Shown: positions 1 through 25,935 of the stretch, in pieces | Position numbering within the stretch: the stretch's first letter is position 1 | Layout of the letters: every line of letters starts with the position of its first letter | From: Escherichia phage MLF4 | Length of the DNA stretch: 64,000 bases | Reading direction: 5' to 3' (one strand) | Sequence record: NC_055780.1 | The notes under the pieces: model-generated | Told to the model about the DNA's origin: nothing | The model's database searches: none | The model's input: only the letters and a program-made list of their open reading frames with translations | Position numbers and translations under genes: made by a program

Positions 1-927
<927 letters not shown>

Positions 928-4168: not shown

Positions 4169-5719
4169 TTAGTAATGAATTTTAATAATATAGTTTAATG
4201 ATATATTCCATGGTCTAGTTTCATAACCAATTAATCCTTCACGATTAAGTGTACCAAGGGCATCTCTCGGTCCACCTAATTCAAATCCATCATTAGTGAA
4301 GTATGAAGCATTATCCCAGTCGGCATATTTTCTAGTTCCAAGATATCCTTGATAAACGGACGCGCCAAATGGAGCTTCATGTCTTTGATATTCTCCCCAA
4401 CCACCAGCATGTTTATGGTATGACATCTGTTGTGCTTGAACACCGCCAACATGCATTCCGTCACATCCTACACCAAGTCTATCCTTCCCATAGCCATCTT
4501 GTCCTCGTTGATTTAAAATATGACCGCCCGTGCCAGCTCCTCTGACGAAAAGACCTCGCATATCAGGAATACCAGGGTTATTCCAATCACCACCAAATCT
4601 TGTTCCAACCGTGTTTCTATAATCAGGATATTGATCTCCTGACACGGTTCCGCCGTGGCACATAATCCAACCTGGAGGTGCTGAATCACCCGCAAACATC
4701 ATAATAGTTCCAACCGGAACCCGTTCGGACGCATATCTTTCAGTGGCAACAGGCTGATCGCCATTTTTCCACATTCCGCCGCGCGACCAAATTCCATTTG
4801 CCGTGAGATGGTCTAAATTTAAAGAACCATTAATAGTTTGTCCACCACGAGTATTAATTACATCTGCGTTCCAGGCTAATGCCCCAGAGCTATCACCTTC
4901 AGGGGCAATACCGGCTTGCGTCGTTAATTTTACTACCCCACGCATAGAACCGGTAGCTCCTCGACCATTTAGTGTTTCACCTGTTACTGCAACATCTCCC
5001 AAATTACTGTTAATTTCTGATTGTGTTCCTAAACGTATAACACCCTTATATTCTTGTGTTGCAACAGAATTCATAAAGGTATACGGAGAAATTGCATATC
5101 CTTCGCGGAGAGTTCCTTGACGAGTTTGAGCGACAGTTGATAACTGAACTACACCTCTAACAGATTCTGATGCTGTGTCTTCTGAAGGAGCTATTTGCGA
5201 AATTAATTTTATTGCGAGTTTTTGGGTTTTCAACGGAGTCATCGCCGTAGTATCATCTATACCAGCCAAAGCCGCAGGAGTAGATGATATTTTAATAACT
5301 CCATTTGATGATTCAGATGAATACCTATTTTGGAATACATCGTCAGTATGGTATTTCAGTTTTTGCGGCGTTATTGATGAATTATTATCTGAGCCTTCTA
5401 AAGTTTCTTCATTTGTTGAATAGCGCGTTAACCCATATTTAGTTTCAGTAGCATTTGGATACAATAATCTTGTTGCTAATGTAGCTGGTGTAACGATTTT
5501 AGAATTATTAGTTCCATCTAAAACCTCTTGCTCCGATGCAATCATTGCTATTCCTTTAACTTCCATAGTTGCATCAGGAATACCATTTACGCCGATATTA
5601 CTTATTTTTGATAATGCTGACTGCACTGTCGTGACAGTGTCAGGAAAATTCGATCCTGCAGGATCGAATTTAACGTATTTCGATTCATTTGATACGTGCT
5701 GATATGTATTGTTACTCAT
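4169..5719 (-). CDS. 12: short tail fiber gp12 (516 aa)
   Basis: Synteny between gp11 and wac; size close to T4 gp12; Gly/Ser-rich fibrous composition. Confidence 0.85.
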
Positions 5720-22337: not shown

Positions 22338-22718
22338 ATGTATAAAGTATATGCAGATTATCAGGCTAATCCATCTGAAAAGCCAGATTGCCAAATTGGA
22401 TGGGCTCATGATACTTTGCTTGAAGCAGTAGATGCTGCTCAAAAATTAGGATATAAATATGTAGAGATTGTTCAACCGACAGGAAAAGTTATTACTCTTG
22501 AAGAGTTCAATAATATTAAACCGAACTTTTTACTTTTTGCAGGTGATAATTATTATCCTCGCGGTGGATATGCTGATTTAATCGCGAAAGCCGCTACCGA
22601 AGATGAACTTCGTGATATTATCAAAGAAAATGAAAACAAACCGATGTATGGTTCTAATCGCTTTGATTGGTGGCAAATTGTAAATGCCCACACTCATACT
22701 ATTGTTGATGAAGGGTAA
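22338..22718 (+). CDS. hypothetical protein (126 aa)
   Basis: ATG at 22338 with AAGGTGAG RBS; no recognised motif. Confidence 0.55.
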   Translation: MYKVYADYQANPSEKPDCQIGWAHDTLLEAVDAAQKLGYKYVEIVQPTGKVITLEEFNNIKPNFLLFAGDNYYPRGGYADLIAKAATEDELRDIIKENENKPMYGSNRFDWWQIVNAHTHTIVDEG

Positions 22719-22720
22719 TA

Positions 22721-23011
22721 ATGATTCTTTATGCTAAAGTATCGTCCATTGAAAATGGATATAAATATGATCAAGAAGCAGCTAAAGCCTTGATTGATGA
22801 TTATGGCATTTTAACATGTTTTGAAGTTGAAAAGGTTTACATTGACCGTTCATCTTCTCAGGTTAAATTAGTGAAGGAAGACCGTAAATTTAATACAGTA
22901 AATTTTGATTTCTTTATTGAAACAGAAAAAGGTCCTCTTGAATATGATATTTTCAAGAATCCTTTAAGTCTTGAATGTATTAAATATACTTATATTAATG
23001 CAGCGTGGTGA
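22721..23011 (+). CDS. hypothetical protein (96 aa)
   Basis: Tightly packed same-strand ORF; no recognised motif. Confidence 0.55.
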   Translation: MILYAKVSSIENGYKYDQEAAKALIDDYGILTCFEVEKVYIDRSSSQVKLVKEDRKFNTVNFDFFIETEKGPLEYDIFKNPLSLECIKYTYINAAW

Positions 23012-23013
23012 AA

Positions 23014-23526
23014 ATGAATATTTGTTTAGGTACTACAATTCCGCAGGGTTACGTAATTGATGTCACTACCTGGGAAAATGATGGTGACAACTATAAAACT
23101 AAAACGCTGTTTGGCGTAGAAGAGCATGAAATCTTACAGTTCCAATATCTTTTAAAGAAGTTTAAAAGCAGACATTCTAGTACTAAAGCTGAACGTTATT
23201 GTGGTAATGGCTTGTTCAGCGAGCAATCGCTTTTTATTTATGAATACTTGGTTGAAGGACTGTTCTCAGAACAACTTTATCCAGAATTCATTAAAAAGGT
23301 CTTTGATATAGAAGTTGACCTTGGTAATAAATCCGAAGAAGATGAAGAACGTGTATTTGACTTATTCTTTGTGAATGGTAATAAGATATTTGAAGGCCTT
23401 ATTGATATTCTTGGTCATGCTTCTGAATATTATGACTATGATTTCTTGCGTGTAGTTGAGAGTGTTAAATACTCTTATATAGAAGAAATTGTTTTGCCGA
23501 CCGTTAAAATGTTTAATTTGCTTTAA
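23014..23526 (+). CDS. hypothetical acidic protein (170 aa)
   Basis: ATG at 23014 preceded by GGTGAAA; no recognised motif. Confidence 0.55.
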   Translation: MNICLGTTIPQGYVIDVTTWENDGDNYKTKTLFGVEEHEILQFQYLLKKFKSRHSSTKAERYCGNGLFSEQSLFIYEYLVEGLFSEQLYPEFIKKVFDIEVDLGNKSEEDEERVFDLFFVNGNKIFEGLIDILGHASEYYDYDFLRVVESVKYSYIEEIVLPTVKMFNLL

Positions 23527-23625
23527 GAATTATTTGTTATTATTAACTCATACCGCACTGATTAATACCCTCTATCATCAAGGGTTCTTGCTAAAGAGCC
23601 TTTGTTAATAATTGGGAATCATATT

Positions 23626-24234
23626 ATGGATACTAAATTAGCTGAAATTTTTGAAGGAAAACATCCAAATTTTAGTACAGGAAAGCTGAAAGACAAAATA
23701 ATAAAAGAAAATATTTTTCCATATGAGTGTGCAATTTGTAAAATTTCAAAATGGCAAAATAAGCATATTGTTCTGCAATTAGACCATATTGATGGAAATA
23801 ACAAAAATCATCTTAAATCAAATTTAAGATTATTATGTCCAAACTGCCATTCGCAAACTGATACTTTTGCTGGTAAAAATATTAAAAATAATAAAAAGCG
23901 TTATAATGTTAGTGATGAAGAAATTTTAAACGCACTATTAAATTCGGCTACTATATCATCTGCAATTACTTCATTAGGTTTAAGTAAAGGCGGAAACTAT
24001 AAAAGATTCATTAAAATTGCTAATGATAATAAATTATATCATTTACTGGTAAATATTAATGAAAAGATTTTAACTGATGAAATTTACGAAGAATTAGTTA
24101 AAATCGATTATTCTAAATTTGGATGGGTTAGTAAAGCTGCTAAAATAATAGGTATAAGCCCACAAAAAGCTAGAAAATGGATAGAACGAAAGTGTCCAGA
24201 ATTGATAGAACAGTCTTTTTCACGTAATAAATAA
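23626..24234 (+). CDS. HNH homing endonuclease-like protein (about 202 aa)
   Basis: HNH core LQLDHIDGNNKNHLKSNLRLLCPNCHSQT; C-terminal helix-turn-helix-like region; ends 6 nt before tRNA-Leu. Confidence 0.8.
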   Translation: MDTKLAEIFEGKHPNFSTGKLKDKIIKENIFPYECAICKISKWQNKHIVLQLDHIDGNNKNHLKSNLRLLCPNCHSQTDTFAGKNIKNNKKRYNVSDEEILNALLNSATISSAITSLGLSKGGNYKRFIKIANDNKLYHLLVNINEKILTDEIYEELVKIDYSKFGWVSKAAKIIGISPQKARKWIERKCPELIEQSFSRNK

Positions 24235-24240
24235 TATAGC

Positions 24241-24327
24241 GCGAGAATGGTCAAATTGGTAAAGGCACAGCACTTAAAATGCTGCGGAATTATTTCCTTG
24301 TGGGTTCGAGTCCCACTTCTCGCACCA
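24241..24327 (+). tRNA. tRNA-Leu (anticodon TAA), class II
   Basis: Acceptor GCGAGAA/TTCTCGC, anticodon loop CTTAAAA, long variable arm, T-arm GTGGG-TTCGAGT-CCCAC, CCA encoded. Confidence 0.9.
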
Positions 24328-24332
24328 AATTT

Positions 24333-24406
<74 letters not shown>

Positions 24407-24416
24407 ATTTAATTTA

Positions 24417-24490
24417 CTCCGTGTAGCTCAGTTTGGTAGAGCGCCTGATTTGGGATCAGGAGGTCCAAGGTTCAAATCCTTGTATGGAGA
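24417..24490 (+). tRNA. tRNA-Pro (anticodon TGG), CCA not encoded
   Basis: Anticodon stem-loop CCTGA-TTTGGGA-TCAGG; T-arm CAAGG-TTCAAAT-CCTTG; acceptor with two G-U pairs. Confidence 0.85.
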
Positions 24491-24492
24491 CT

Positions 24493-24582
24493 GGAGGCGT
24501 GGCAGAGTGGTTGAATGCACCGGTCTTGAAAACCGGCAGTCGCTCCGGCGACTCATAGGTTCGAATCCTATCGCCTCCGCCA
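24493..24582 (+). tRNA. tRNA-Ser (anticodon TGA), class II
   Basis: Acceptor GGAGGCG/CGCCTCC, anticodon loop CTTGAAA, long variable arm, CCA encoded. Confidence 0.9.
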
Positions 24583-24587
24583 GTTTT

Positions 24588-24663
24588 GCTGATTTAGCTC
24601 AGTAGGTAGAGCACCTCACTTGTAATGAGGATGTCGGCGGTTCGATTCCGTCAATCAGCACCA
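24588..24663 (+). tRNA. tRNA-Thr (anticodon TGT)
   Basis: Acceptor GCTGATT/AATCAGC, anticodon loop CTTGTAA, T-loop TTCGATT, CCA encoded. Confidence 0.9.
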
Positions 24664-24664
24664 A

Positions 24665-24739
24665 GGCCCTGTAGCTGGAAGGTTCAAGCAAGCGACTCAT
24701 AATCGCCAGATGGTGGTTCAATTCCACCCAGGGCCACCA
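24665..24739 (+). tRNA. tRNA with anticodon CAT (Ile via lysidine, as in T4, or Met)
   Basis: Acceptor GGCCCTG/CAGGGCC, anticodon loop CTCATAA, T-arm GGTGG-TTCAATT-CCACC, CCA encoded. Confidence 0.8.
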
Positions 24740-24745
24740 AATTAA

Positions 24746-24832
24746 GGGGAGTTATCCCGTAGAGGTAGCGGTGTGGACTGTAAATTCATTGTCATTGCGA
24801 CTCGGGTGGTTCGACTCCATCACTCCCCACCA
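24746..24832 (+). tRNA. tRNA-Tyr (anticodon GTA), class II
   Basis: Acceptor GGGGAGT/ACTCCCC, anticodon loop CTGTAAA, long variable arm with GTC/GAC stem, T-arm GGTGG-TTCGACT-CCATC, CCA encoded. Confidence 0.75.
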
Positions 24833-24836
24833 ATTT

Positions 24837-24911
24837 GGATGTGTAGCTCAATGGCAGAGCGATCGCCTGTTAAGCGATTGGTTATAGGTTCGAATCCTAT
24901 CACGTCCGCCA
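24837..24911 (+). tRNA. tRNA-Asn (anticodon GTT)
   Basis: Acceptor GGATGTG/CACGTCC, D-arm TAGCTCAATGGCAGAGC, anticodon stem-loop ATCGC-CTGTTAA-GCGAT, T-loop TTCGAAT, CCA encoded. Confidence 0.8.
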
Positions 24912-25025
24912 AATTTGTGACAACTGTCACATTAATATCTACTTGACGCGATTATAGGGGTTGAACTGATCACTCTTCTCTTAATTTCGTGTGAAGACAT
25001 CATGATTGTTGGAGTAGGTATTAAT

Positions 25026-25101
25026 GTGGCCGTAGTTCAGTTGGTAGAACTCGAGATTGTGATTCTCGTAGTCATGGGTTCGACTCCCATCGGTCACCCC
25101 A
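25026..25101 (+). tRNA. tRNA-His (anticodon GTG)
   Basis: Acceptor GTGGCCG/CGGTCAC, anticodon stem-loop CGAGA-TTGTGAT-TCTCG, T-loop TTCGACT, CCA encoded. Confidence 0.8.
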
Positions 25102-25105
25102 ATTA

Positions 25106-25181
25106 CGGGGCATAGCTCAGAAGGAAGAGCAAGGACCTTCTAAGTCCTGGGTCGTAGGTTCGATCCCTACTGCCTCGACCA
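25106..25181 (+). tRNA. tRNA-Arg (anticodon TCT)
   Basis: Acceptor CGGGGCA/TGCCTCG, anticodon stem-loop AGGAC-CTTCTAA-GTCCT, T-loop TTCGATC, CCA encoded. Confidence 0.85.
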
Positions 25182-25199
25182 ATTATAAGTGAGGAAAAT

Positions 25200-25550
25200 A
25201 TGAAAGGTAATGTTTATTTAGTAGTTCATGATTTAACATTCTATTTTAATCATAATGATACTGTTATTTCTGAACGTGTAATTAATTTGCTTTATCAGCA
25301 TGCAGATTATGTTTATGTCGAAAACGAATATGGTCATTGGCAATTTCTCAAAAATCGTTCATTTGGTTTAGATGGTTACGAATATTTTGAACGTAAAGAC
25401 CTTTTAGATAAAATTCCGTTATCTACACAATATCAAAATCATAAGTCTTTACATAAATGTCGACTAATTCGAAATGCTGAATCTGCTTATGAAGCAATTG
25501 ATTTATGGCGTTTACGCCGTGAACAGATTGATGCTTTAAAAGAATATTAA
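25200..25550 (+). CDS. hypothetical protein (116 aa) embedded in RNA gene cluster
   Basis: ATG 25200 with GTGAGGAAAA RBS directly after tRNA-Arg; no recognised motif. Confidence 0.55.
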   Translation: MKGNVYLVVHDLTFYFNHNDTVISERVINLLYQHADYVYVENEYGHWQFLKNRSFGLDGYEYFERKDLLDKIPLSTQYQNHKSLHKCRLIRNAESAYEAIDLWRLRREQIDALKEY

Positions 25551-25889
25551 GAAGCCGGGTCGCTACCGGTAAGTCGTCGGACTGATGTTCCCTGAGTAAG
25601 GACTAGCCTTAATAAATCTTTATGTTTTGTTAATGCTCCCTTACATCACAGCAGAAACGGCGCACCGAATTATCGATTCGAGGAAATATCTTTGCCGTAA
25701 GCCGAGTAGCGTTTTTGACGGAACGTTCGGATATGGTCGAGATATGGCCTTTTAAAAATATTGAGTAGCGTCAACTGCTTGATAACCGGGTTCGAATCCC
25801 GGCGTTTCGTACAAACACTTGCCTTAGCAGGTGGAACCCCGACAAGGTTGCCGCAAGGCTTAGCCCCAGCCGAAAGGTTGGGGCTTTTT
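25551..25889 (+). ncRNA. candidate structured stable RNA(s), possibly T4 species-1/2 (rnaC/rnaD)-like, ending in intrinsic terminator
   Basis: About 340 nt with no ORF; GC content clearly above surroundings; multiple short hairpins; tRNA-like T-arm CCGGG-TTCGAAT-CCCGG at 25786-25802; terminator at 25863-25889. Confidence 0.45.
25863..25889 (+). terminator. intrinsic terminator (copy 1 of repeated element)
   Basis: GCCCCAGCC-GAAA-GGTTGGGGC hairpin plus TTTTT. Confidence 0.7.
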
Positions 25890-25891
25890 AG

Positions 25892-25899
25892 TATAAATA
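25892..25899 (+). promoter_or_regulatory. T4 late promoter TATAAATA upstream of IP-like gene
   Basis: Exact TATAAATA 37 nt upstream of ATG 25936. Confidence 0.55.
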
Positions 25900-25935
25900 A
25901 GTATATTAAATCTACAAATTAAAACAGGAAATAAG

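Follow-up and report, generated by a model that had tools for sequence, protein, structure and literature searches.

The window, that is the whole stretch of 64,000 nucleotides analysed here, is a segment of a Tequatrovirus (T4-like) genome. Phage a51 is the closest match to the region of the tRNA array (23000-25600, 97.8% identity), which is also matched by over a thousand T4-type records. The tRNA operon is preceded by a leader that is 95.6% identical to the T4 leader. A gene for a 202-aa HNH protein is located between this leader and tRNA-Leu and not within an intron or intein. Table 1 gives an overview of the features at this locus.

Table 1. Features of the tRNA operon and of the HNH gene (nucleotide positions refer to the window, residues to the 202-aa protein)
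Feature	Position	Strand	Description
trna.2 homolog	22721..23011	+	Conserved left neighbour of the tRNA operon
173-aa ORF (phrog_2290, RB32ORF134c-like)	23005..23526	+	Indel polymorphism in its own right, located between trna.2 and promoter
T4 middle-promoter-like element of the tRNA operon	23517..23543	+	MotA box TTTGCTTTA, 12 nt, TATTAT
Leader hairpin, conserved, with hypervariable loop	23580..23603	+	Upstream of the junction; variation confined to the loop; fold computed
tRNA-Gln left remnant	23613..23619	+	TGGGAAT, first 7 nt (5' strand of the acceptor stem); T4 and R5505 tRNA-Gln begin identically
Replacement cassette	23620..24237	+	618 nt (6-nt 5' UTR, CDS and 3 nt past the stop); in place of tRNA-Gln nt 8-71
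HNH endonuclease CDS	23626..24234	+	ATG 23626, TAA 24232-24234; 202 aa plus stop
HNH core of the 202-aa protein	residues about 33-78		Zinc ligands C35/C38 and C71/C74; D53-H54; N66; H75
Remainder of the 202-aa protein			Middle helical module; C-terminal helix-turn-helix at about residues 165-190
Right-hand junction	24238..24240	+	AG (last two nt of tRNA-Gln), then C as spacer before tRNA-Leu
Remaining tRNA array	24241..25181	+	Leu, Gly, Pro, Ser, Thr, Met (CAT, annotated Ile in T4), Tyr, Asn, His, Arg

For phage Lutter a promoter is annotated at the equivalent of the promoter-like element; a sigma-70 promoter scan is uninformative for a T4 middle promoter. In 18 phages the stems of the leader hairpin are invariant, and the 4-nt loop reads CTAA, TTTG, TTAG, CTTG, CTTA and others. 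The 173-aa ORF reaches into the MotA-box-like motif with its stop codon; it is present in a51, CM8, R5505, T2 and phiD1 and absent from T4, ACG-C40, T6 and others.

An HNH core had been read from the sequence of ORF 23626-24234 in an earlier note on this DNA, and it is indeed present in the 202-aa product, which includes LDHIDGNNKNHLKSNLRLLCPNCH, while the Pfam HNH profile (PF01844) scores 17.3 bits, short of its gathering threshold of 21.4 bits. Across 40 aligned homologs the residues C35, C38, W43, H54, G57, N66, L67, C71, P72, N73, C74, H75 and T78 are invariant. The general-base histidine is found in the pair D53-H54 within LQLDHIDG, of which D53 is conserved in at least 90% of the sequences. 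The structural Asn and the metal-binding His/Asn (N66, N73, H75) as well as the zinc site (C35-x2-C38 and C71-x2-C74) are retained throughout. Hence neither the catalytic His nor the Asn is missing, and these residues and the zinc ligands do not vary even in orthologs that are just 58% identical to the protein. Two such orthologs, P0003 and P0004, also give a weak precomputed match to PF01844. PHROG 14736 ("HNH endonuclease") matches the protein from end to end (E=5e-124), and the PHROG HNH families match strongly. Proteins annotated as HNH endonucleases in ACG-C40, slur14, HY03, Ozark, Lutter and other phages are 100% identical to it, and 5510 homologs were retrieved from a search of 5.8 billion proteins. 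No GIY-YIG domain was matched in Pfam, and no PDB chain matching by sequence was found. An AlphaFold model with the 40-homolog alignment as input reached a mean pLDDT of 90.9. All 11 HNH ORFs that were compared are intact, with CDS copies at least 97.9% identical in pairwise comparison. Their variable codons comprise 16 synonymous and 4 non-synonymous ones, which indicates purifying selection on the ORF.

The closest characterised relative is F-TflIV (hegA) of phage T5 (BLASTP E=2e-22, 35% identity over 170 aa, residues 16-184), and the protein falls into an F-TflIV-like subfamily by this match. Both share the CxxC...DH...N...CPNCH core and an HTH-like C-terminal tail, and F-TflIV is likewise encoded inside a phage tRNA cluster, directly after tRNA-Ile2. 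It is classed with the PF01844-type His-Me finger nucleases (PMC5714182). F-TflIV differs in its origin from the Demerecviridae, whereas the HNH protein belongs to the Straboviridae, and in its length of 227 aa including an N-terminal extension. Since the two are distantly related, the specificity of F-TflIV cannot be transferred to the HNH protein. MobA-E of T4 are similar to the HNH gene in their PF01844-type His-Me group (PMC5714182) and in being intergenic free-standing genes of T-even phages. As judged from the numbers of records obtained by tblastn they are not close relatives: the HNH protein matched 251 phage records at E≤1e-3, compared to more than 500 existing Tequatrovirus-type records, so that most T4-type genomes hold nothing detectably similar. 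I-HmuI and I-TevIII also combine an HNH motif with a modular build of nuclease and helical DNA-binding domains, but are intron-encoded, unlike the gene in the window. I-HmuI is placed in a different His-Me group (PF05551/PF13392; PMC5714182) and was not among the top structural matches of the HNH protein model. In kind the ORF is ordinary: a putative free-standing HNH homing endonuclease gene of the F-TflIV type which, although uncharacterised, already has its annotation in public records.

ARAGORN predicts 10 tRNAs in the window and tRNA-Gln is not among them. With T4 tRNA-Gln as blastn query only chance matches were obtained in the 64 kb; a hidden or degenerate copy was found neither by blastn-short nor by Rfam at E≤1, and the stretch 22500-24240 is devoid of any tRNA-like Rfam match. 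The absence of tRNA-Gln asserted in the earlier note is thus upheld, and the distance of 6 nt given there between the HNH stop codon (ending at 24234) and tRNA-Leu (starting at 24241) is correct. R5505, teqhal and slur13 have 11-tRNA arrays in the same order, with Gln as the one addition. For ACG-C40, which carries an HNH gene identical to that of the window, the genome paper reports no more on the tRNA/HNH locus than the number of 10 tRNAs.

Several further features were observed along the array. The tRNA at 24665-24739, called Met (anticodon CAT) by ARAGORN, corresponds to the T4 gene annotated as tRNA-Ile; the blastn alignment with T4 enters this tRNA by about 20 nt before the sequences diverge. 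At position 24291 in the variable-arm loop of tRNA-Leu the window has a private T, while the other 18 of 19 arrays have a G. The segment 24912-25101, consisting of a 114-nt spacer without Rfam match and tRNA-His, is an indel block that is missing in T2, Lutter and phiD1, where Arg directly follows Asn. Downstream of the array, positions 25551-25895 are 93% identical to T4 rnaD and rnaC (stable RNA species 2 and 1) and end with a terminator-like hairpin (25862-25885). Two small ORFs overlapping these RNA genes (25627-25755 and 25761-25922) appear as hypothetical proteins in some of the related records; they are probably spurious.

The breakpoints of the cassette were derived from blastn and from alignments with T4, R5505, T2 and other relatives that lack the HNH gene. 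R5505 and the window share one background, 173-aa ORF included, yet R5505 possesses 11 tRNAs. Exactly 618 nt lie at the swap site in all 11 carriers, compared to 64 nt in each of the 7 parsable non-carriers, and both junctions are the same in 11/11 carriers. The GC content of the cassette is 25.9%, compared to 35.0% for the window. As the alignments indicate, tRNA-Gln was destroyed rather than interrupted, no host gene being split and re-joined, and the HNH cassette physically displaced the body of the first gene of the Tequatrovirus tRNA operon. The displacement of tRNA-Gln by a free-standing HNH gene, which the earlier note had put forward as a possibility, is therefore supported by the exchange of tRNA-Gln nt 8-71 for 618 nt between constant junctions. 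The junction triplet AGC shows the variants AAC and AGA in cassette carriers only, which is consistent with lost constraint on the remnant. The orthologs on contigs L009 and L010 have AATTGGAA, similar to TGGGAAT, ahead of their ATG, and the 7 nt on the left side could partly represent microhomology or cassette sequence instead of a true tRNA remnant.

The position of the gene also suggests how it may be expressed. The resident middle promoter of the tRNA operon would transcribe the HNH gene as first cistron of the tRNA precursor, and 5' processing of tRNA-Leu would generate the 3' end of the HNH mRNA 6 nt past the stop codon. A weak Shine-Dalgarno function is now conceivable for GGGA of the Gln remnant, which is located 8 nt ahead of the ATG.

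The cassette is found in 62 phage records (about 12% of the matching ones), at one place each and always at least 98.7% identical, whereas the order leader-Gln-Leu is intact in 448 of 531 matching phage records. This sporadic presence with exact junctions is as expected for a free-standing homing endonuclease gene. We mapped 19 arrays, 11 of HNH carriers and 8 of non-carriers: tRNA-Gln is absent from all carriers (0/11) and present in all non-carriers (8/8). SG1 (with Gln) and JEP6 (with HNH) even belong to one ICTV species and differ at this locus. Among the 19 arrays, the 173-aa ORF, segB and orf160 (a 160-aa ORF at the Thr slot) each accompany the cassette in some cases and are missing beside it in others. 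Thus the cassette is polymorphic in otherwise colinear genomes and resides on several flanking backgrounds. Such recombinant backgrounds are compatible with super-Mendelian inheritance in mixed infection, but are no proof of it.

Related genes occupy syntenic positions in other T4-like genera. P0003 and P0004 are encoded on the T4-like contigs L009 and L010, and on L009 the segment 3896-4587 with the HNH gene replaces positions 1798-2019 of Erwinia phage Cronus (Roskildevirus), tRNA-Gln included. The L010 ortholog, too, stands in place of a segment with tRNA-Gln when Cronus is the reference. By comparison with Cronus (L023, 2254-2329), tRNA-His was also lost from L009 by a clean deletion (about 4823-4831). 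P0002, which is 68% identical to the HNH protein, stems from contig L008, a relative of Klebsiella phage PhiKpNIH-6 (Marfavirus). Compared to that phage, the L008 cassette replaces the tRNA-Asn immediately 3' of tRNA-Gln, and tRNA-Gln itself is intact. Judged by synteny, the HNH lineage is tied to the tRNA-Gln locus in three genera, with a tRNA gene replaced each time, and its recurrence in two genera besides Tequatrovirus points to locus-specific targeting. Since L008 keeps an intact tRNA-Gln beside the gene, a tRNA-Gln as such is not enough to define the target. The recognised site may extend across the boundary to the following tRNA, or the orthologs may have drifted apart in their specificity.

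According to the earlier note the HNH ORF lies where T4 carries segB. This is wrong: the T4 order is trna.2 - 97 nt - Gln Leu Gly Pro Ser Thr Ile - segB - Arg - rnaD - rnaC, which puts segB seven tRNA genes downstream, at a site corresponding to the Tyr-Asn-His stretch of the window (24746-25101), and the HNH ORF takes the position of T4 tRNA-Gln. The related statement that a different endonuclease family sits at the same locus fails likewise, as the segB site differs and both genes coexist in HY03, JEP6, SH-2 and pSe_SNUABM_01. The two genes are therefore rejected as alternatives for a single site; each invaded the tRNA array independently of the other. SegB resembles the HNH protein in being encoded by a free-standing homing endonuclease gene of the same operon whose 3' end abuts a tRNA gene, and in the C-terminal helix-turn-helix motif A-K-x-I-G-(V/I)-S-x-x-Q-A-(K/R)-K. 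It differs in its catalytic family, GIY-YIG and unrelated to HNH, and in its site, which in T4 is Ile/Arg and not the Gln slot. SegB recognises the T-psi-C region of tRNA genes with a preference for T2L tRNA-Asn, and its homing is about 100% efficient and deletes neighbouring tRNA genes (PMC2330249). A broad association of segB with tRNA genes has been described (PMC13096335).

In all carrier arrays among the 19 mapped the HNH gene is found at the Gln slot, whereas SegB-like genes occur at no fewer than four positions: Ile/Arg in T4, Tyr/Arg in T6, Gly/Ser in CM8, where tRNA-Pro is replaced, and Leu/Arg in SH-2. The SegB-like GIY-YIG genes of CM8 (L002, 2953-3561), T6 (L012, 2220-2885) and SH-2 (L022, 2433-3098) are 83-97% identical to T4 SegB, and a GIY-YIG domain match is present in the CM8 protein. 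The 160-aa ORF replaces tRNA-Thr from nt 13 onward in OE5505 (L006, 2628-3110), Lutter, pSe_SNUABM_01 and, as trna.1, in T2 (L011, 2214-2615). It has no Pfam domain, is about 32% identical to the CM8 GIY-YIG protein by tblastn, and ends in a C-terminus (NVSHTQARKFL) similar to the HTH tails of SegB and the HNH protein; it may represent a third, unclassified or degenerate homing endonuclease. Arrays with two or three endonuclease genes (HY03, JEP6, pSe_SNUABM_01) look like products of reciprocal homing between co-infecting phages. The tRNA-Asn of the window (24837-24911) is 100% identical to that of T2, and T2L tRNA-Asn holds the experimentally preferred cleavage site of SegB (PMC2330249). Since segB is absent from the window, we predict that the window phage is SegB-sensitive in mixed infection with T4.

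We consider it probable that a free-standing homing endonuclease gene of the F-TflIV type, with an HNH (His-Me finger) nuclease as its product, has replaced the body of tRNA-Gln. This nuclease is most likely active and aimed at the tRNA-Gln region. In mixed infections it would cut or nick cassette-free genomes at tRNA-Gln or directly beside it; the carrier genome would then serve as template for a repair that brings in the cassette and deletes tRNA-Gln, and carriers would be immune since the swap removes the target site. In T-even phages the cleavage sites of free-standing endonucleases are often remote from the endonuclease gene itself, which counts against a local target. The flanks were compared with regard to marks of a remote, protected cleavage site, and over 1.5 kb on the upstream and 1.3 kb on the downstream side no alignment column was found that separates carriers from non-carriers. 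The sole consistent difference between the two groups in this comparison is the swapped segment itself. Provided that this locus is the target, the simplest reason for a protection of the carriers is that the site comprises tRNA-Gln sequence which they have lost. T4-like phages package their DNA by a headful mechanism. A packaging-associated role of the HNH protein was rejected on context, the gene being part of an early/middle tRNA operon.

It is conceivable that the nuclease is kept mainly for the benefit of the phage, by excluding competitors or by stimulating recombination and copy-number changes of the array, in which case it would be more than a selfish homing element. This reading overlaps with the homing explanation, and both may hold together. 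The purifying selection on the ORF and the persistence of the lineage at the same locus in three genera (58-68% identity) would fit, and SegB-driven amplification of tRNA genes is known to neutralise Septu (PMC13096335). Nevertheless, we regard benefit to the phage as an unlikely main cause, as the cassette is present in a small part of the matching records, its arrival costs the phage one tRNA gene, and no tandem amplification was seen in the window or the examined loci.

Even lower is the probability that the HNH gene is an inactive relic which was inherited or hitchhiked via ordinary recombination. The near identity of the CDS copies would leave little time for visible decay, but the 11 ORFs are without exception intact, synonymous codon changes prevail over non-synonymous ones, the catalytic and zinc ligands are retained in the most divergent orthologs, and the cassette resides on many different flanking backgrounds. 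Least credible are two unrelated events, in which tRNA-Gln was deleted and the HNH gene inserted into the gap later. Plain tRNA deletions do occur, for example of His in T2, Lutter, phiD1 and L009 and of Pro-Ser in T6. However, a deletion of Gln without the cassette was seen in none of the examined Tequatroviruses, both junctions are identical in every carrier examined, and the swap of a tRNA for an endonuclease gene is seen again in two further genera and for two further ORFs of the array. Homing with replacement of tRNA-Gln thus remains the preferred explanation.

The exchange is a very clean example of a mobile element replacing a tRNA gene, within the known behaviour of homing endonucleases of T-even phages. 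Our literature searches found no published description of this HNH gene or of its swap with tRNA-Gln; new are the recurrent association of the HNH lineage with the tRNA-Gln locus across genera and the pattern of one endonuclease for one tRNA in the array. At nucleotide resolution a second, unrelated endonuclease family is seen to act on the same tRNA array as SegB. Natural pairs of filled and empty alleles are available (window or a51 versus R5505, JEP6 versus SG1), and such matched pairs make homing, mapping of the target site and the fitness cost of tRNA-Gln loss directly testable. Phage tRNA arrays are counter-defence loci, and this array is remodelled by SegB (PMC13096335); according to a 2026 study amplification of tRNA-Tyr by SegB leads to escape from the tRNA-cleaving Septu system (PMC13096335). 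We give an even chance to the broader view that the HNH lineage is specialised on the tRNA-Gln locus in at least three T4-like genera (Tequatrovirus, relatives of Roskildevirus and relatives of Marfavirus), swaps one whole tRNA gene per invasion and, together with SegB-like genes and T2 trna.1/orf160, progressively erodes or reshuffles the 11-gene array, as an HNH counterpart of SegB. If this is true, such a lineage could shape which host defences a phage evades, because phage tRNAs can neutralise tRNA-cleaving host defences.
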